Part shown: one piece after another, positions 45,565 through 53,668 of the stretch
How the letters are laid out: every line of letters begins with the position of its first letter
Numbering within the stretch: the first letter of the stretch is position 1
Assembly: GCA_022447685.1 (NCBI GenBank)
Contig: JAKVAO010000001.1
Span: 22,939-86,938, forward strand
Direction of reading: 5' to 3'
Length of the DNA: 64,000 nucleotides
Source: Candidatus Caenarcanales bacterium
Lineage (GTDB): Bacteria > Cyanobacteriota > Vampirovibrionia > LMEP-6097
Program-made: the position numbers and the translations under genes
The notes under the pieces: model-generated
The model's input: only the letters and a program-made list of their open reading frames with translations
Database searches by the model: none
What the model was told of the DNA's origin: nothing

Positions 45565-46209
45565 GTGGATAAGAAAGAGAAAAATAGATACGTAATGTTT
45601 AAGGCAGTTGAAGAAGTGCTTCTCAGCAGTGAGGAAACTTTGAGTTCAACTCCAGCATTATCCTTAGTATTCAAGGATTTTCAAAAATTACTTGGAGAAA
45701 TTAATGAGGTCGATAATAAATATAAATTAGTTTCAGAAGGAGCTGCTGCAAAGAAAGATAAGTCTGAGGATGATTTGATTGATGCTTTGCTCGCTGTTGC
45801 TGGAGTGGTTTATATCTATGCTCGAAGAAATGATGATGAGCAATTGAAGGCTATGACTAGGCTTACTAGTAGCAGCCTGAAGAAAATGCGCGATGCTGAT
45901 TTGTTGCAGAAAGCTAAAGGAATAACTCAGATGATCGAAGATAAATTTCAGGAACTTAAGAAATTTGGTTTGGAGAGAGACATTCTAAAAGACCTTCAAC
46001 AGAAAGTATCTAATTATGAAAATGCTTCAGATTCTAAAGACGCTAAGTTTGGGCAGAGTAAAGCTGCTAGACAAGAGCTAACTGAGATTTTTGAGCAGGC
46101 AAATGAGATCTTGAATGAAGAGCTAGACACAGTTATGGATTTTGTGAAAACCAAAGATTCCTCTCTCTATAAGGATTATCATGCTACTCGTTCGATTAAA
46201 GATGTTTAG
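45565..46209 (+). CDS. hypothetical alpha-helical protein
   Basis: GTG start with RBS AAAAGGAG 6 nt upstream. 214 aa. Followed by a strong intrinsic terminator. Confidence 0.45.
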   Translation: MDKKEKNRYVMFKAVEEVLLSSEETLSSTPALSLVFKDFQKLLGEINEVDNKYKLVSEGAAAKKDKSEDDLIDALLAVAGVVYIYARRNDDEQLKAMTRLTSSSLKKMRDADLLQKAKGITQMIEDKFQELKKFGLERDILKDLQQKVSNYENASDSKDAKFGQSKAARQELTEIFEQANEILNEELDTVMDFVKTKDSSLYKDYHATRSIKDV

Positions 46210-46244
46210 TTTCTATTTCTCACTGGCATGAGATTTTGTGTGTA

Positions 46245-46272
46245 AAGCACCCCTTTGGGGTGCTTTTTTATT
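46245..46272 (+). terminator. rho-independent terminator
   Basis: AAAGCACCCC TTTG GGGTGCTTT followed by TTTTATT, read directly from sequence. Confidence 0.7.
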
Positions 46273-46326
46273 CTTGAACATTGAAATATTAATGAAATAA
46301 TAACGTTATAAGTATATAATTATATT

Positions 46327-46542
46327 ATGGCAAAAATTAAACAACTACAAAAAGTAGGGACAAGTAAAGGAATCGTAATTGATAAGCCAATTTTAGAGAT
46401 GCTTGATCTTGACCATGATGAGGCTGCTGTAGAGTTTGAAATTACTCCTGAGGGATTATTATTAAAACCTGCAAAGATTGAATCTATTTATAAAAAAGTT
46501 GCTAAAAAACATCGTAAGTCACTTGATAAGTTAGGTAAGTAA
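46327..46542 (+). CDS. AbrB/MazE/SpoVT-type antitoxin-like DNA-binding protein (Phd/MazE class)
   Basis: 71 aa. VGTSKGIVIDKPILEMLDLDHDEAAVEFEITPEGLLLKP is the swapped-hairpin AbrB/MazE fold pattern. Its stop overlaps the start region of the Doc-family gene. Confidence 0.65.
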   Translation: MAKIKQLQKVGTSKGIVIDKPILEMLDLDHDEAAVEFEITPEGLLLKPAKIESIYKKVAKKHRKSLDKLGK

Positions 46543-46628
46543 TTCTGTATTTTCTAAATTTAGAAGAAGTTCTTTTTATACATCAAGCTGAGACTTCTTA
46601 TGCTAAGCATGATTCAAATGTTCGAGAT

Positions 46629-46928
46629 TTGAACTTACTCAAATCCTCAATTGAAAATATTGAGATGATTTATATCAATGCTTACGATACCAATATATTT
46701 TCTCTTGCGAGTTACTATATAAAGTATATAAGCTTAAATCACCCTTTTGTCGATGGGAATAAGCGTACAGCATTAGCTTCAGCTGTTGTATTCTTAGAAT
46801 TTAATGGGTACTCTATTGATGAAACATATGAAGAAGAATTAGCAGACTTAGTTTTAAATTTCATTAATAAAAAGATTCAACAAAAGGATTTAGTTCAGTT
46901 TCTAAGAGGTAACTCTAGAAAGAATTAA
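46629..46928 (+). CDS. doc: Doc/Fic-family toxin (death-on-curing type), annotated from a TTG. The conserved N-terminal helix lies further upstream in frame.
   Basis: HPFVDGNKRTALASAVVFLEFNGY is the Doc Fic-motif (HxFx[DN]GNKR). The upstream in-frame codons encode LNLEEVLFIHQAETSYAKHDSNVRDL, which matches the Doc N-terminus but has no ATG/GTG/TTG start. Confidence 0.75.
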   Translation: MNLLKSSIENIEMIYINAYDTNIFSLASYYIKYISLNHPFVDGNKRTALASAVVFLEFNGYSIDETYEEELADLVLNFINKKIQQKDLVQFLRGNSRKN

Positions 46929-46955
46929 TTTATGGATAAAGAGCCTATAGATTAA

Positions 46956-49193
46956 ATGATGAGTAAACTGTGTGTAAATTTAGAATATTGTTATGGCATA
47001 AAAAAACTTTGTCATGAATTTGATTTTGAAGGAGGGGAGACAAGTATTATATATGCACCTAATGGTTCAATGAAAAGCTCTTTTGCTAGAGTATTTAAGG
47101 ACTTGAGTAAAAGTGAATTGTCTAAGGACTTGATGTTCCCTGAAAGAAACTCTAAGCGTGAGGTTTTAGTTTGTGACAGTGATAGAGAGAGCGGTAGAAA
47201 GATTGAAGCTGAAGAAGTTTTAGTTATAGAACCTTATGTAGAAAACTATGAATTAGATGAAATGTCTACTCTCCTAGCAAAACCTGATCTGAGACAAAAA
47301 TACGCTGAGATTCATAAAGAAATTGCAACTAAACAAGATATTGCCTTAAAAGCCTTAATCAAAAATACTGGTTATTCTAAAGCTAAAAATGATCAAAAAG
47401 AAAAAATTTATAACAAGCTACTTAAATCTTTCGGTGAAAAGGATTTGAAAGAGTTATTTGAGAAAATTTTAGAATCTATCGATAAATATAATGAACATGA
47501 ACTCCGTGATATTGAATATAAGCAAATTTTCAATTCAGAATCAGAGACTTTACTTAAAAATGAAAAATTCAGATCACATATTAGCGATTATGTAACTCTC
47601 TATGAGAAATTAATAGATCAATCACAATATTTGAGTAAAGATTTCAATGATTACAACGCTAATCAAATTCAAAAGCAATTAGATAATAATGGTTTCTTTA
47701 AATCTGGTCATAAGCTTAAAATGAAAAATAAAGAAGAATTGATTGATAATCAAGAGCAGTTGAAATCTCTGATTGAAGAGGAAAAAGAGAAAATCTTTAA
47801 TGACGATGAATTGAAAAATAAGTTTATAGAATTTGAAAATTTATTAAATAAGAAAGAAGATAGGCGGTTTAGAGATTATTTACAAAATAATCAGAAACTA
47901 ATTCCATACTTAGAAAATCTTGATAGTTTAGAAAAAACTCTTTGGATGATATATGCTTCAGAGGCCAAGTCTGAACTTGAAGATTTTTCTAAATCTTACA
48001 GCAAAGGGAAAGATGAGTTGTTAAAGATTGTTCGGGAAGCTAAAGAAAGTAAAACAACTTGGATGGAAGCTATGAAAACTTTTAATGAGAGATTTACTCA
48101 CTTACCTTTTTCGCTTAGCCCTATAAACAAGGAAGATTGTATCCTACATGAAGAAGAGCCTAATATTCAATTTGTTTTTAAAGAAAATGATGAACTGCAA
48201 AGGAATGTTGAGAAAGAAGATCTATTAAAAGTATTGAGTCAGGGAGAAAAGCGAGCTCTCTATTTGCTCCATATTATTTTTGAAATTGAAATTAGAAAGT
48301 GTAAAAAACAGAATACTTTTATTATCATTGATGACATCGCTGATTCATTTGATTATAAAAATAAGTATGCAATCATTGAATATTTGCAAGATATTTCTAA
48401 AGATCAGAACTTTAAGCAAATTATACTCACGCATAATTATGATTTTTATAGAACTACCAAGAGTAGATTAGCTATTCCTAAAAAGCTTTGTTTTCAGGTT
48501 TATAAAGGAAACAAAGAAATAAAACTTTTGGGGGATATAATTGGGCAGAATCCTATTGTAGAAATTATAAATGATATTTACTCAGCAGAGGACGGTGAAT
48601 TTAATGATATTAATTTAATTGCTTCGATCCCTATTCTTAGAAATATTTCAGAATACTTGGGCTTGCAAGAGTTTAAAAATCAATTAACCTATATGCTTCA
48701 TATTAAAGCTGGAAAAGATTCTATTATTGGAACCTACGATATTACAGTTGGAGATTTAACCAAGATCTATAATGTAGTCAATAGGGGCAGTATTGAATAC
48801 CCTATGGATAGAGAAGAGAAAATTCTTGATTTGATTTATAAAGTAGCTGATGATTTCCTGTCTGATAAAAAAGAAACTTTAAGTTTAGAAAATAAAATAG
48901 TGTTAGCTATGGCTATTAGACTTAAGGCTGAAGAAAAAATGATAAGTGATTTAAAGGAATTTGACTCATCCTTTAACATACCAAGTAGTCCAAAGCAGAC
49001 ACGCGATCTATCTAAAAAATATCAAAAGCTCCTAGAGAAAGAGCGTGAAAAATCTATATTAGAAAGAGTTCGTGTCATGACCCCTGAAAATATCCACATA
49101 AATTCTTTTATGTATGAACCCATACTTGACATGGCAGATGTTGAACTTAAACATTTATATACTCAAGTGAATGATATTTTGGGCGAAAATTAA
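46956..49193 (+). CDS. AAA_13-like (PrrC/RloC-type) ABC ATPase with long coiled-coil insertion and an uncharacterised C-terminal domain of about 250 aa
   Basis: Deviant Walker A IIYAPNGSMKSS (aa 31-42). K/E-rich coiled-coil from about aa 100 to 400. ABC signature LSQGEKRALYLL (nt about 48233-48250). Walker B/D-loop FIIIDDIADSFD (nt 48318-48335). H-loop ILTHNYDFY. Confidence 0.6.
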   Translation: MMSKLCVNLEYCYGIKKLCHEFDFEGGETSIIYAPNGSMKSSFARVFKDLSKSELSKDLMFPERNSKREVLVCDSDRESGRKIEAEEVLVIEPYVENYELDEMSTLLAKPDLRQKYAEIHKEIATKQDIALKALIKNTGYSKAKNDQKEKIYNKLLKSFGEKDLKELFEKILESIDKYNEHELRDIEYKQIFNSESETLLKNEKFRSHISDYVTLYEKLIDQSQYLSKDFNDYNANQIQKQLDNNGFFKSGHKLKMKNKEELIDNQEQLKSLIEEEKEKIFNDDELKNKFIEFENLLNKKEDRRFRDYLQNNQKLIPYLENLDSLEKTLWMIYASEAKSELEDFSKSYSKGKDELLKIVREAKESKTTWMEAMKTFNERFTHLPFSLSPINKEDCILHEEEPNIQFVFKENDELQRNVEKEDLLKVLSQGEKRALYLLHIIFEIEIRKCKKQNTFIIIDDIADSFDYKNKYAIIEYLQDISKDQNFKQIILTHNYDFYRTTKSRLAIPKKLCFQVYKGNKEIKLLGDIIGQNPIVEIINDIYSAEDGEFNDINLIASIPILRNISEYLGLQEFKNQLTYMLHIKAGKDSIIGTYDITVGDLTKIYNVVNRGSIEYPMDREEKILDLIYKVADDFLSDKKETLSLENKIVLAMAIRLKAEEKMISDLKEFDSSFNIPSSPKQTRDLSKKYQKLLEKEREKSILERVRVMTPENIHINSFMYEPILDMADVELKHLYTQVNDILGEN

Positions 49194-49203
49194 CTTCAGG
49201 ATT

Positions 49204-49566
49204 CTAAGATCCACTACCAGAAAAATAAGTAATTCTAGCCACAGAAACTTCAGAAACAAACATAACTCCAGATTGCCCTTCTAGTAGTGTTCTCAAGCCT
49301 CTTGCGATATTACTGATTACATCTTCAGGTGCTACAGCCATGACCATGACTTGGCTAGACTTATCATTGAACAGTAATCTACCTTCGTGTGAACCGCTGT
49401 GACCATAACCAGAGACATTCGGAATTATCGTATAGCCAGTAACTCCTGAGTCCTGCATCATATTCGTCACCTTCTCTTGATTCTCACCAGAAATGACTAC
49501 TTCGATTTTAAGCATTTTGCTTAATTTTAGCCCAGTGTTTTCTTCATCAAAAAATACGTTGTCCAT
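49204..49566 (-). CDS. PII-like (nitrogen-regulatory-protein P-II superfamily) protein associated with the DAB operon
   Basis: 120 aa. Ferredoxin-like PII-type fold pattern (KIEVVISGENQEKVTNMMQDSGVTGYTI...GRLLFNDKSSQVMVMAVAPEDV). Sits immediately downstream of dabA. Confidence 0.55.
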   Translation of the reverse strand: MDNVFFDEENTGLKLSKMLKIEVVISGENQEKVTNMMQDSGVTGYTIIPNVSGYGHSGSHEGRLLFNDKSSQVMVMAVAPEDVISNIARGLRTLLEGQSGVMFVSEVSVARITYFSGSGS

Positions 49567-49577
49567 ATAACTTATCC

Positions 49578-52280
49578 TTACAGATCGTCGAAATTATCGA
49601 CGTTTATAATACTACCAGTATCTGGCTCAATAATGGTAAGATAAATCCACTGATTTCTGAATAAGGTAAGTAAGTTAAGGTTTCTTTTAAGAATATTTTC
49701 TACTCTCTCATATGGAGCGTGAATTACGACCCTCAATCTAAGTGGTTTGTGAAATAACTCCTCATCACTTTTGAACACTGATTGTAAACTAAGTCCAGTG
49801 AATAGATCACTCATGTTTCCTTGAAGTACACCTAGGTCACCAACTATATTATGGGTGATTTTGCTGCCACTTCCGAAGTTTTTGATATCCATAGAAGAGA
49901 AGTAGTATTGGTTGTTAATCCACTGTGTGACTACCATTGGACCTCCCATGATAGTTTCAAGTAAAGTTCCATCTGGATCAGACTCTTGTCTGTAGGAGTG
50001 CATGAACACTCTATTAGAAAGATTATTACCTTTGGTAAGTTCTCTTGGTCCAATGACGAAAGCCATATTCCCAGCAAGCCCCCACTCAGGTCTTGTCTCT
50101 GACCAGTCTATAGATTTAGCTAGAATTGCTGCATCATCGATATCAAAACTTTCATCACTATTTCTTGAGACTCTATTTAGCTTTGCTGCTATTTTTAAGT
50201 TTGCTTTTAGTTCTTTTAACTTCTCGATTTTTTCTGGATGGGTGATTTCAATATCGTAGATTTCAATTTCGTCAGTGGTTGTATTGTGCTCCGCACCAAG
50301 GAAAACAGTAGTGTCTGGAATCTTGATACCATTATCTGCTATTGTTCTTCTGATTTCTGGAGTGTTGAGTACTTTTGCAAGAGTCTTAGCGTTAGAGCCA
50401 CCATGCTGTCCAGCACAAGCTCCGCAGTCTAATGCTGATGCGTATGGATTATTTTCTGTTTGGCTACCGTGTCCAGTGAAGAGTACAAATTCACTAAAAT
50501 TATCAGTAAGTCCCATTAGTCTTAAAGCAGTTTCTGCAAAGAAAGCTTGTTCCTTTCTAGATAGACCATGCTCGTTGGTTGGGCTCAAGTCTATATTAGG
50601 TTCGAAGTGTACTTTTGTTTTCTCTTTAGGGAAAAGCTTTTCTATACCTAGTTTTAATTTTAGAGTTATAGTTTTTAATAGCATGAGAGCTAAATAAATT
50701 AAACCTGAAGCTTCAGCAAATATGAAAGCCGCTGCTATATTGTTTTTCTGTGCTTTATAAGATTTATAGACTAATTCGGAGATGCGCTGGTTAATCTGAA
50801 AATCCATGAAATCTTCAGCACTTTTCGGGTGAACATGCTCTTCTACAACGTGCTTTGGACTTATTAGTACTGGGCATGCTGCTTGAGGATTGGTATCTTT
50901 GTGAGTTTTGTAACTGATTGGTAAACCAAAGAAACCAGCAAAGCCAAGTGTCTCAACGTTGGCAACGCTTTCTATAGATCTTCTAATACCTTCAGATCTG
51001 ACATCTATGCAGAATATCATCTGTGCTGTCGAACGCTTATTTTGAGCAGAGATACTACTCATTAATTCTTGGTTAACAGAGATCTGCTCAAGTAGTATAG
51101 AGTGTTCTGTAAGTTCCCAGCTCATTTGCATAATGTAACTTGCTCTGAGAGAGAATTCTTTGATCACTTCTCTGATTTTATTAAGTTCAGTATCACGAAG
51201 CATTTCTGGATCAACGTCATTGTTTAAATTACTTTTTTTAATTAGAGTAATTAGATTCTTATCACTGTATTTAATTTCATCAGGGATTATTTGTTGATTA
51301 TATTTCTCTAATTCTGAGTTCTGTTCCTGTAAAAGCTTTTTGAGAATTTGTTCTTCGAATTCTTCAAAATCATTTAAGCCATCTTTGTCTTTGAAATTTA
51401 AATAATCAAATAGATATATAATCTCAACTATCAGCCTTACTGCAAGGAAATCAGTTGTTTTGATTTTGTATTTGAAATCTTTGTTGTGACTATTCAGCTC
51501 TCTCCACTTGATAAAGCTTGACCAGCCACTTTGGCAACATAGATTCGATTTCAGGTATTCATCCCAGTCACTTTCTTTTAGACCCAAGGTCTCAAGTGCT
51601 ACTACTACTGTCTTCTCTGAGGAATCTGGCAGCATTTTGATCCAGGATTTGATTTTTCTATTCTTGCTAAGTTTGTCATCGAAAGGAGCTAGCTTTTTCC
51701 AGCAAGTATAAAAACCTTGATCTCTATTTGGTAATTCCCATGTAGCTTGACTTTCATCGAAGTAAGCTGCGCAGAGATAGTTCATGTAATTATTAACTTT
51801 ATCTAGGGTGCGCCCGTTGTTTATATGCTGAGAATATGGATAAGTTTTCTCTGGCTTTTGACGAAATTCTTCTATAACTCTTTGCTCAAGAAGTTTTAGT
51901 AGTAGAGGTGAGGTTTTTAAGGACTTGCCATTATCAAGTTCAATGTCATTGAAGTGTTTATCAATAGTCTTTAAAAGTAACTCACGGTTTATCTCATTGT
52001 TATCGAGTAAGTCATAGTATTTTTTGATGGGAAAGAAAGATTCTGCATCGAAATATTTAGCTGCATCTTTAGTTGCATCAAAGAAGTGCTGGTCTTCAAA
52101 CCCTTTCAATGGATTAATTGCAATGAAACTTTTTAGTGACCAATTGGTATTCACGACTTCGAAGGCATTCGCTACAAGAGCTGTGATCATATTTGTGGTA
52201 AGTTTTTTATCATCAAAACTCTTGTGAACATTGTTGAGAGTTGAAGTTAATGCCTCTTGGTCTTTTAAACTGGTAATCAT
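49578..52280 (-). CDS. dabA: DabA (DUF2309) subunit of a DAB-type energy-coupled CO2 hydration / inorganic carbon uptake complex
   Basis: 900 aa. DUF2309 hallmark MIFCIDVRSEGIRR (Cys-x-Asp zinc ligands) and FTGHGSQTENNPYASALDCGACAG (His and Cys ligands). Directly downstream of a PF00361-type membrane subunit. Confidence 0.85.
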   Translation of the reverse strand: MITSLKDQEALTSTLNNVHKSFDDKKLTTNMITALVANAFEVVNTNWSLKSFIAINPLKGFEDQHFFDATKDAAKYFDAESFFPIKKYYDLLDNNEINRELLLKTIDKHFNDIELDNGKSLKTSPLLLKLLEQRVIEEFRQKPEKTYPYSQHINNGRTLDKVNNYMNYLCAAYFDESQATWELPNRDQGFYTCWKKLAPFDDKLSKNRKIKSWIKMLPDSSEKTVVVALETLGLKESDWDEYLKSNLCCQSGWSSFIKWRELNSHNKDFKYKIKTTDFLAVRLIVEIIYLFDYLNFKDKDGLNDFEEFEEQILKKLLQEQNSELEKYNQQIIPDEIKYSDKNLITLIKKSNLNNDVDPEMLRDTELNKIREVIKEFSLRASYIMQMSWELTEHSILLEQISVNQELMSSISAQNKRSTAQMIFCIDVRSEGIRRSIESVANVETLGFAGFFGLPISYKTHKDTNPQAACPVLISPKHVVEEHVHPKSAEDFMDFQINQRISELVYKSYKAQKNNIAAAFIFAEASGLIYLALMLLKTITLKLKLGIEKLFPKEKTKVHFEPNIDLSPTNEHGLSRKEQAFFAETALRLMGLTDNFSEFVLFTGHGSQTENNPYASALDCGACAGQHGGSNAKTLAKVLNTPEIRRTIADNGIKIPDTTVFLGAEHNTTTDEIEIYDIEITHPEKIEKLKELKANLKIAAKLNRVSRNSDESFDIDDAAILAKSIDWSETRPEWGLAGNMAFVIGPRELTKGNNLSNRVFMHSYRQESDPDGTLLETIMGGPMVVTQWINNQYYFSSMDIKNFGSGSKITHNIVGDLGVLQGNMSDLFTGLSLQSVFKSDEELFHKPLRLRVVIHAPYERVENILKRNLNLLTLFRNQWIYLTIIEPDTGSIINVDNFDDL

Positions 52281-52324
52281 GGTTAAATCCTTTATTTTGA
52301 GTTGCGATTAATCTGTATTTGTTT

Positions 52325-53668
52325 TTAATTCGCGTATTCACCTCTAACACTAGTATTGGTAACTTCTTTACTCATTGAGGTGTTTTTGAGAAAAGCGTAT
52401 ATTCTCAAATGTAATTCCTCTGGAAGAGCATAGAGTATATCTTCTTTATAGTTCATTGCTAACCAAAGTAGGACAAATGGACTGAGCAGAAGCCAGTGCG
52501 GTAGATGAATTGCATAAGTATGCATGTGAACGCTACTAACTAAGACTAATTCGAAAAAGTGTATGAATGCTCCATAGAGTATTGCAGCTGAGACCGAGAC
52601 AAAGAATGCAAAGAATGGAACTAGGAAGTTTTTACTACTGGTAAGTATGCTCAGGCTAAGTTGTGTTAATGCCATAAATATAAATGCAAATAAAATAATG
52701 GAACTGTCGTAGAAATTAATTGGAATATGCGCAGCTACAGAAAAAAGATTGATGGAAACATATGAAAACCCCATGGCAATTACTAGTAATAATGTTTTCT
52801 GAGCAACGGTTAACCTAAGTTTTTCTGGACGCTTGATTTGAATACCTGAGCCAGCGGCAAGGAAGTGAAAGGCTTTGAATAAGCCGTGCATGATTAAATG
52901 GCTTATTGCAGCTGGGAAAAGACCAAGTCCAATTTGGAGCACCATGAAACTCATTTGAGAAACAGTGGAGCACACTAAAGTAGCTTTTACTGTATTCTTC
53001 GTGAAAGCCCAAAGCATTGCAACGAAAGCGCTAAAGGCACCAATGAAGCTTAAGATGCTTAGAAATATAGGTTGTTCTAGCAGCATAGGGCTAAGTTTTA
53101 CTAAGAGAAAGCCACCACCGTTAACTATCCCTGCGTGCATTAGAGCTGAGATTGGTGTTGGCGAATTCATAGATGAAATCAACCAACCATGGAAAGGTAG
53201 CAGAGCTGACTGTGTGAGTGCAGTTATGCAAACTAGGCTTAAAGAAATGATTTGATAATTACCAGGAATGTCTCCAAAGCTTTGGTTGAGCTTGGTGATG
53301 CTGAGTTCACCAGTGTAGATATAAGTGATAATGCTAAAACCAAGTAAACAAGCTATACCTATACCAAAGTTTCGTGCTGCAACTATCCCAGATTCGAAAG
53401 CTGCTTTCCATTTATCTTTGTGGATCATGAGTAGCACCAAAAGGACATTCGTTAATGCGTAGAAAAAACAAAAAGCAATCAAATTATCTGTATTCACTAG
53501 TAAGCAAGCTGAAACTATAAGTGCAAAGAGTCTTACAAAGTATGTTTTGTATAAAGAATCTCCACTGATATAGTTCTTCGAAAACTGGGTGATTATAAAT
53601 CCAACAAATAAAACTAATATAGTTAGACTTAAGCCAAGTGAATTGATCTGAAATATTGAATTGAGCAT
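52325..53668 (-). CDS. dabB: DabB, proton-conducting membrane subunit (NuoL/MnhA-like) of the DAB complex
   Basis: 447 aa, about 13 TM helices, NuoL/Mrp antiporter-like core (HAGIVNGGGFLLVKL and HLIMHGLFKAFHFLAAGS). Operon partner of DUF2309. Confidence 0.75.
   Translation of the reverse strand: MLNSIFQINSLGLSLTILVLFVGFIITQFSKNYISGDSLYKTYFVRLFALIVSACLLVNTDNLIAFCFFYALTNVLLVLLMIHKDKWKAAFESGIVAARNFGIGIACLLGFSIITYIYTGELSITKLNQSFGDIPGNYQIISLSLVCITALTQSALLPFHGWLISSMNSPTPISALMHAGIVNGGGFLLVKLSPMLLEQPIFLSILSFIGAFSAFVAMLWAFTKNTVKATLVCSTVSQMSFMVLQIGLGLFPAAISHLIMHGLFKAFHFLAAGSGIQIKRPEKLRLTVAQKTLLLVIAMGFSYVSINLFSVAAHIPINFYDSSIILFAFIFMALTQLSLSILTSSKNFLVPFFAFFVSVSAAILYGAFIHFFELVLVSSVHMHTYAIHLPHWLLLSPFVLLWLAMNYKEDILYALPEELHLRIYAFLKNTSMSKEVTNTSVRGEYAN

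Follow-up and report, generated by a model that had tools for sequence, protein, structure and literature searches.

The 64,000-nucleotide stretch analyzed here (the window) belongs to a contig of a Candidatus Caenarcaniphilales metagenome-assembled genome and harbors a block of about 2.9 kb with three genes on the + strand. These are an open reading frame (ORF) for a 71-residue antitoxin (46327–46542), the frame of a Doc toxin, which runs to 46928, and a gene for a 745-residue ATPase (46956–49193). The preliminary description took them for one hard-wired, undescribed defence module. Our results indicate that this islet most probably consists of two independent, separately mobile modules that are adjacent by chance, namely a Doc toxin-antitoxin (TA) cassette and a stand-alone protein of the family PDC-S46. 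The Doc and PDC-S46 members of the islet are new; both kinds are already catalogued, so there is no new three-gene system.

The gene neighbourhoods of the ATPase homologues speak for two modules. The loci examined numbered 93, of which 80 were genome loci from bacteria and archaea with full-length homologues of 31–42% identity, 2 were from plasmids and 11 were IMG/VR contigs. All stop-to-stop ORFs in them were searched with hidden Markov models (HMMs) built from the Doc and antitoxin families. No Doc/antitoxin pair was found in any of the 93 loci, and with this result the claim of a hard-wired triplet fails. The sole Fic-type matches were in L026, where a RhuM-Fic fusion adjoins the ATPase, and in L034, where a Fic-like ORF lies at a distance of 5 kb. 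The ATPase family is large, with more than 5,790 homologues at E ≤ 1e-10, the nearest of which outside the species shows 45% identity or less. Members reside on 29 plasmids, in 1 phage record and on 11 IMG/VR contigs.

No neighbour family recurs in more than 10 of the 80 genome loci, and no conserved partner emerges; the recurring neighbours are components of restriction-modification (RM) systems. Close and co-oriented with the ATPase were N6_Mtase, Eco57I, Methylase_S and RhuM (5 loci each) and MmeI and TaqI_C (3 each), and further co-oriented neighbours included DpnII, Mrr and Type ISP. Four Saccharibacteria loci (L043, L045, L047 and L050) display the order hsdM-rhuM-ATPase-hsdS-hsdR, which recalls the location of prrC inside the EcoprrI operon.

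In 5 of the 80 loci a RhuM gene either overlaps that of the ATPase homologue by 4 bp or is separated from it by 6 bp, and one of the RhuM proteins is fused to Fic (L026 8166–9149, L043 4976–5998, L045 3235–4257, L047 4979–5998, L050 4979–5998). As a sign of a partnership between Fic proteins and the ATPase this adjacency is weak, since four of the five cases represent one Saccharibacteria type I RM architecture that embeds both genes.

The relatives of the TA cassette give the same picture from the other side. In the four closest cassettes (L083, L093, L094 and L095) the antitoxins are 76–82% and the Docs 56–63% identical to those of the window, and a 71-residue antitoxin orthologue, itself 76–82% identical, precedes each of the four Docs. 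Downstream of the cassette, L083 (antitoxin 82%, Doc 62% identical) has a Fic_N-Fic gene in convergent orientation, L093 an unrelated co-oriented ORF, and L094 a non-coding stretch before a convergent gene. None of the three has an ATPase; the flank of L095 is too short, and the statement that the TA cassette occurs without the ATPase is based on the other three. A literature search found no paper on a Doc TA pair coupled to an ATP-binding cassette (ABC) ATPase.

The co-oriented ORF of L093 (1404–1520) starts 9 bp after Doc, begins with MNPPKKIASFVLGAGFSHA and runs off the contig. Pfam gave no match on the 39-residue fragment. Its GAGxS-like start presumably recalls SIR2-type defence proteins.

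Variation within the population separates the two modules further. A 1-bp deletion in a run of five T residues of the ATPase gene (Table 1), together with linked single-nucleotide polymorphisms, is common to two independent assemblies. The second null allele is a nonsense mutation, which splits the ATPase into 586 and 129 residues and leaves the total length unchanged. A third split, into 274 and 415 residues, is listed in the protein cluster and is unchecked. The null alleles are found in L087, L088 and L096, and the TA cassette is identical in both null-allele haplotypes compared (L087 and L088). Thus the ATPase is dispensable and the TA pair is independent of it. The intact ATPase allele is carried by most contigs (at least 59). 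At least two independent ATPase null alleles therefore circulate in the population, as expected of a dispensable accessory gene.

The assignment of the second gene to Doc, which the preliminary description had made from the motif HPFVDGNKRT, is sound. On the 128-residue frame TIGR01550 (DOC_P1) matches with E = 3e-18 (66.0 bits against a cut-off of 38.65) and the Pfam family Fic (PF02661) with E = 2e-9 (38.3 bits against a cut-off of 24). Residues H68, P69, F70, D72, G73, N74, K75 and R76 are invariant in an alignment of 12 sequences. Doc toxins phosphorylate EF-Tu, and translation stops.

What had been overlooked is that the full frame comprises 128 codons but has lost its canonical start. 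The frame is open from 46539, and Doc homologues of about 130 residues cover at least 95% of the 128 codons. Automatic ORF calling begins at an internal TTG (46629) and yields 99 residues, and gene callers yield 87. Between the stop at 46536–46538 and this internal TTG, the Doc frame contains no ATG, GTG or TTG. The four closest relatives start Doc at the junction with the antitoxin stop, using ATG, ATG, TTG and TTG. The native junction in the window is GTAATTCTG. Within nt 46536–46547, two substitutions (AAA to AAG and TGA to TAA in the antitoxin frame) have changed an ATGA overlap into GTAA without altering the antitoxin. The ancestral ATG is now GTA (46539–46541), and where a start would be expected, the sole candidates are ATT (46542) and CTG (46545). 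The loss is present in every population contig compared. Judged from its frame, Doc would be either untranslated or made at a very low level by reinitiation at the ATT or CTG, and the loss of the start codon weakens an effector role for Doc.

Relaxed selection on Doc was considered and rejected. The nonsynonymous divergence (dN) between the window Doc and its relatives is 0.28–0.38, no larger than the 0.34–0.35 among the relatives themselves, with synonymous divergence saturated in this comparison. Since Doc shows no accelerated divergence, the loss of the start codon is either recent or tolerated.

These observations bear on the possibility that the whole islet is a decaying remnant, in which Doc has been silenced by its start loss and the ATPase drifts toward a pseudogene. 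The universal loss of the Doc ATG in the contigs compared would fit this, as would the two or more independent null alleles, the one with fragments of 504 and 221 residues and the other with 586 and 129. The ATPase gene of the window, however, retains an unbroken frame of 745 codons at 29% GC and all the family-invariant residues, and the intact allele prevails among the contigs. Doc likewise has a frame open for 128 codons, its active site is intact and its divergence is not accelerated. We consider decay of the islet quite unlikely.

The antitoxin is reasonably assigned to the AbrB/MazE type, as had been proposed, because members of its family match TIGR02609, ChpS and MazE_antitoxin. The window protein itself gives a weak match to TIGR02609 (E = 0.023, 15.1 bits, below the cut-off of 55.9). 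Five of six family members match that model at E ≤ 1 (best 2.7e-7), one member matches ChpS and one the Pfam family MazE_antitoxin. A search of the antitoxin profile against the PDB sequences returned nothing meaningful. Doc directly follows this gene in the window, as it does in each of the five related cassettes (L083, L093, L094, L095 and L084). The promoter-like region in front of it and the palindrome over the -10 element are conserved in the related cassette L083. From its position, this palindrome is probably the antitoxin operator, through which the antitoxin would autorepress the TA promoter.

Table 1. Coordinates of the features of the islet and its left border in the window
Feature	Position	Strand	Details
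Intrinsic terminator of the upstream 214-residue gene	46244–46272	+	stem 46244–46266 with 10 pairs (6 G-C), loop of 3, then T tail
Promoter-like region of the TA cassette	46274–46323	+	ATGAAA-17-TATAAT, 10/12 matches
Imperfect palindrome over the -10 element	46286–46323		centre TAACGTTA
71-residue antitoxin, AbrB/MazE type, "doc_partner" family	46327–46542	+	assigned from TIGR02609, family members and Doc neighbour
Doc-family toxin gene	46542–46928	+	128-codon frame, motif HPFVDGNKRT intact, ancestral ATG lost
ATPase N-lobe, residues 1–102	46956–47261	+	atypical Walker A APNGSMKS; K40 codon 47073–47075
All-helical insertion, residues 103–380	47262–48095	+	between Walker A and signature; secondary structure from AlphaFold
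ATPase C-lobe, residues 381–527	48096–48536	+	signature LSQGEK, Walker B IIIDD, D-loop SFD, H-loop TH493
Run of five T residues with 1-bp deletion in other population members	48443–48447	+	frameshift, giving ORFs of 504 and 221 residues
C-terminal helical domain, residues 528–745 and stop	48537–49193	+	putatively HEPN-like fold, no Rx4-6H, putative effector

The layout of the islet is as the preliminary description had it. The block follows directly on an intrinsic terminator, whose stem and T tail were confirmed and which forms the left edge of the low-GC islet, and its three genes are co-oriented and tightly spaced. The antitoxin and Doc genes overlap by 1 nt, 27 bp separate Doc from the ATPase gene, and the ATPase stop lies 10 bp from the end (49204) of a convergent P-II-like gene on the - strand. 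The richness in AT, first judged by eye, was borne out by computation. The three-gene block has 29.1% GC against 35.2% for the whole window and is its most AT-rich stretch. Among the 60 window ORFs of at least 100 residues (mean 35.8%, standard deviation 2.7), the ATPase gene is the lowest at 29.4%; Doc has 28.7% and the antitoxin 31.5%. The flanking genes are housekeeping genes, with Rieske and cytochrome b upstream and a P-II-like gene, DabA and a proton-antiporter-like subunit downstream. The block has the look of a horizontal acquisition, as the earlier reading had also supposed. The islet occupies the same site in all 24 species contigs read. A search around the islet found no flanking direct repeats or att-like sites. 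Relatives without the insert were sought through the upstream 214-residue protein in the JGI metagenome contigs, where none of 128 pattern matches encoded a relative. The NCBI entries of the antitoxin (MCH2226210.1) and the ATPase (MCH2226212.1) are both named "hypothetical protein".

The layout also argues for a true three-component system, in which the ATPase senses infection and frees or activates Doc, for instance by displacing the antitoxin, or in which a promoter controlled by the antitoxin responds to stress and switches on the ATPase. The co-oriented genes with their overlap and short gap, the lack of an internal terminator or a convincing internal promoter, the low GC common to all three genes, and the arrangement fixed at its site in the 24 contigs all point this way. 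ATPase homologues have an adjoining Fic-fold protein (RhuM or the RhuM-Fic fusion) in 5 of 80 loci, and PADLOC lists a three-gene candidate with a Doc-like middle gene, PDC-M59. Against this stand the absence of the AbrB/Doc pair from the 93 homologue loci, the closest TA cassettes, which lack the ATPase, the listing of the ATPase family by PADLOC as a single-gene candidate, the Doc gene without a canonical start codon, and the ATPase null alleles that persist beside an unchanged TA cassette. The RhuM neighbours lie inside type I RM operons and are explained by co-embedding. Neither PDC-M59A nor PDC-M59C finds a match, and Doc matches PDC-M59B with E = 8e-5 only. A three-component system is thus very unlikely.

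The ATPase is a full-length member of PDC-S46, as the PADLOC run suggested in the preliminary description reveals. The PADLOC HMM matches with E = 5.1e-225 (747 bits), and residues 2–740 align with positions 1–717 of the 719 in the profile. PADLOC lists PDC-S46 as a single-gene (PDC-S) candidate. It is one of 145 untested phage defence candidates, the PDC families being defined by "guilt-by-embedding" in BREX, DISARM and RM loci (Payne et al., bioRxiv 10.1101/2024.01.29.577857). The proposal of an undescribed defence system thus holds in part. The ATPase family is tied to defence by its embedding in RM loci and its presence on plasmids and viral contigs, but "undescribed" does not apply.

The ABC ATPase motifs named in the preliminary description are real. 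K40 of Walker A, L427, S428, G430 and E431 of the signature, D459 and D460 of Walker B, and H493 of the H-loop are invariant in 100 homologues. Two motifs are atypical. The Walker A of the family is xPNGxM39-K40-(T/S)-S, in which an invariant Met replaces the Gly before the Lys (window 47058–47081, residues 35–42). The Walker B and D-loop read D459-D460-x3-S464-F465-D466, with DD rather than DE (window 48330–48353, residues 459–466). These deviations raise the question of whether the ATPase hydrolyses ATP or solely binds the nucleotide.

The AlphaFold model of the ATPase (pLDDT 85) has an ABC head, a helical insertion of residues ~103–380 and a separate helical C-terminal domain of residues ~528–745. 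The coiled-coil insertion proposed earlier is right as to a helical insertion (residues 103–380). With longest helices of about 27 residues in the model, the insertion does not form a long coiled coil of the SMC type. The insertion may serve as a putative sensor or dimerization arm. Foldseek places the ABC head in the SMC/Rad50 fold, with the best matches to SMC, Rad50 and RecN heads (E down to 3e-7) and lower ones to retron I-A and Septu PtuA. The family profile found, among the PDB sequences, a marginal match to the Smc4 head alone (E = 0.57).

Membership in AAA_13, the PrrC/RloC-type family invoked earlier, was not borne out. Pfam gave no significant match on the window ATPase, and AAA_13 (PF13166) was absent at E ≤ 0.1. 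Among 50 relatives SMC_N matched 45 and AAA_13 one, and SMC_N misses the window protein itself; a precomputed AAA_13 match exists in 1 of 120 relatives. At E ≤ 1 the PADLOC matches of the ATPase were PDC-S46, mad8 and PDC-S06 alone, with no PrrC or RloC model. Given the SMC_N-type relatives and the lack of a PrrC/RloC match, "AAA_13-like" fits the layout, not the family membership.

Such an SMC-like head may also belong to a protein without immune function, that is, an accessory SMC/Rad50-like gene for DNA repair or maintenance or for the upkeep of a selfish element, which would simply be carried along on mobile DNA, next to a TA pair that is a plain addiction module. The ATPase head is closest in structure to those of complexes that maintain chromosomes or repair DNA, neither the Walker A (M39 for Gly) nor the Walker B (DD) is typical, and the defence role of PDC-S46 members is putative; a literature search found no paper naming PDC-S46. 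Nevertheless, the family shows no vertical conservation and is scattered patchily over bacteria, archaea, plasmids and viral contigs, it is inserted recurrently inside RM operons, and the species can do without the ATPase. Its C-terminal domain is also putatively HEPN-like, and the C-terminal nuclease domains of PrrC and RloC are classed as HEPN. A non-immune ATPase is accordingly hardly probable.

The fold of the C-terminal domain is predicted from the model. The fold matches included HEPN toxins of HEPN-MNT systems (8.1, 7.3 and 7.2) and sacsin HEPN (7.6), followed at lower values by Csm6, LsoA, AbiA and HepS. A comparison of the ATPase C-terminus with nuclease folds, proposed in the preliminary description, has thus brought HEPN-like matches. 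Foldseek on the domain model returned nothing below E = 1, and Pfam on the domains of 26 relatives returned noise only. The Rx4-6H motif is likewise missing, as no R followed by H at 4–6 residues occurs in the family consensus; the nearest is R562-N563-x3-Y567. The invariant polar residues are R562, N563, T578, H582, K584, E645, K647, R655, E659, T709, N712, H714, N716, E721 and D725. Residues 528–745 are therefore best described as a putative HEPN-like domain with an undefined active site.

A profile built on this domain matches 1,275 cluster representatives (50% identity) out of 1.84 billion. In the best 150 of the 1,275, the domain is at the C-terminus of proteins of about 720 residues or in shorter pieces. 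Sixteen of these 150 proteins, P0266 included, are 214–230 residues long. They were considered as proof of an autonomous domain gene and set aside, as the one checked (L110 301–981) may be a truncated copy, lying just after a transposase remnant. In L110 this short ORF lies between the transposase remnant and an N6/N4 DNA methylase.

A mechanism like that of PrrC and RloC can be proposed for the ATPase. The three genes would be co-transcribed here from the TA promoter, an arrangement peculiar to this lineage; co-transcription is probable because the gap before the ATPase gene is 27 bp, no terminator intervenes and internal promoter-like sites are at chance level. The ATPase and its insertion would sense infection or the loss of restriction, by analogy with PrrC and RloC. 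The ABC sensor would then license the fused C-terminal HEPN-like domain as an RNase, leading to abortive infection. The analogy makes such a mechanism plausible, and we put it forward tentatively, with the trigger, the RNase activity and the defence phenotype all conjectural.

Several points weigh against two chance neighbours, one of them a PrrC-like defence protein. The phage defence ascribed to PDC-S46 is a putative function drawn from genomic context. No RM system adjoins the ATPase here that could serve as the partner of a PrrC-like "guard of RM" trigger. The similar low GC and the one apparent transcription unit suggest that the genes may have arrived together. A lineage-specific regulatory capture, by which the TA promoter drives the ATPase, is conceivable and has a slight chance of being correct. 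Doc, with no accelerated divergence in its sequence, may still be expressed and selected as a toxin. The linkage is testable on distant homologues only, as no ATPase relative above 45% identity exists outside the species.

Regulation and mechanism may also be combined in one proposal with two parts. The TA promoter would be the on-switch of PDC-S46, the loss of the antitoxin during infection derepressing the ATPase; separately, PrrC/RloC-like ABC-HEPN ribonucleases would have in PDC-S46 a third lineage, distinct in sequence and with a non-canonical active site that lacks Rx4-6H. Taken jointly, the two parts are unlikely to hold.

Comparison with known systems places both modules of the islet. 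The window ATPase shares with PDC-S46 a full-length match as a single polypeptide. Homologues are embedded in RM loci, whereas the window gene lies outside RM, BREX and DISARM loci, after a Doc TA cassette and between housekeeping clusters. With PrrC and RloC it shares an N-terminal ABC-type NTPase, an all-helical C-terminal domain of putative nuclease type and, among its homologues, a frequent location inside type I RM operons. It differs from them in having no AAA_13 match (one in 50 relatives) and no PADLOC PrrC/RloC match. We also take its DDxxxS(F/L)D Walker B/D-loop to resemble that of AAA_13. Its helical insertion of ~280 residues is presumably much larger than that of PrrC and lacks the CxxC zinc hook that we assume for RloC. 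The pattern R655-x3-E659 ... H714 recalls the Arg-Glu-His triad of PrrC and may be its putative equivalent.

Septu PtuA, retron I-A PtuA, Lamassu LmuB and MADS Mad8 also combine an SMC-like ABC head with a helical insertion, and PADLOC mad8 matches the window ATPase with E = 1e-7. These systems have separate effectors, such as HNH nucleases, whereas the putative effector of the window protein is fused and no partner is conserved. The TA cassette shares with Phd/Doc of phage P1 and chromosomal Doc modules the Doc fold, the motif HxFx(D/N)(A/G)NKR, a toxin gene that overlaps the small antitoxin gene before it, and a probably autoregulatory palindrome at the promoter. It differs in its antitoxin, which belongs to the AbrB/MazE "doc_partner" type instead of Phd/YefM, and in that the Doc start is lost. 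PDC-M59 also lists an antitoxin, a Doc-like gene (the one matched by the window Doc) and a third gene as a defence candidate, but the antitoxin and ATPase of the window match none of its components. The two-gene core of PDC-M59 without the third gene was rejected by the authors of the PADLOC candidates, as an ordinary TA pair, we assume.

The surroundings of the islet gave some further observations. The upstream gene (45565–46209) encodes a helical protein of 214 residues, with no match in Pfam, NCBIfam or PADLOC and no relative among the JGI metagenome contigs. With normal GC and a terminator of its own, the gene lies outside the islet. On the - strand downstream (49204–53668), DabA (Pfam E = 1e-230), a Proton_antipo_M-family gene, presumably DabB, and the adjacent P-II-like gene constitute a DAB-type inorganic-carbon uptake module. 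Its host is the genome of a non-photosynthetic member of the Melainabacteria (Caenarcaniphilales), and an AmtB/P-II pair and a LysR regulator adjoin the module.

PADLOC was also run on 42 other window ORFs, outside 45.5–49.6 kb and with the ribosomal-protein cluster at 22.9–31.2 kb left out. The pooled matches were mad3 (4e-11), PDC-S48 (3e-9), PDC-M51A (3e-9), PDC-S10 (1.5e-6) and RTasRmuC (2e-12), along with generic SMC-like matches to LmuB, DndD, PbeC and PtuA, which probably stem from a 1091-residue SbcC. No RM system was seen among these 42 ORFs. An Rfam scan of the whole window gave no matches.

As the linkage of its genes is not conserved, the three-gene system as such does not matter. 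Of the joint proposal, the half with a general bearing is the PrrC/RloC-like lineage, since PDC-S46 is a large and unstudied family. The useful remainder is a structural reading of this widespread family, with an SMC-like head, a helical insertion of ~280 residues and a fused, putatively HEPN-like domain of ~218 residues. Like PrrC, members of the family are often found inside RM operons, of type I and type II. Targets for mutation are offered by K40, D459 and D460, R562 and N563, H582, R655 and E659, and H714. The locus itself, with its start-less toxin and segregating ATPase null alleles, represents a small case of defence-islet turnover in uncultivated Melainabacteria.

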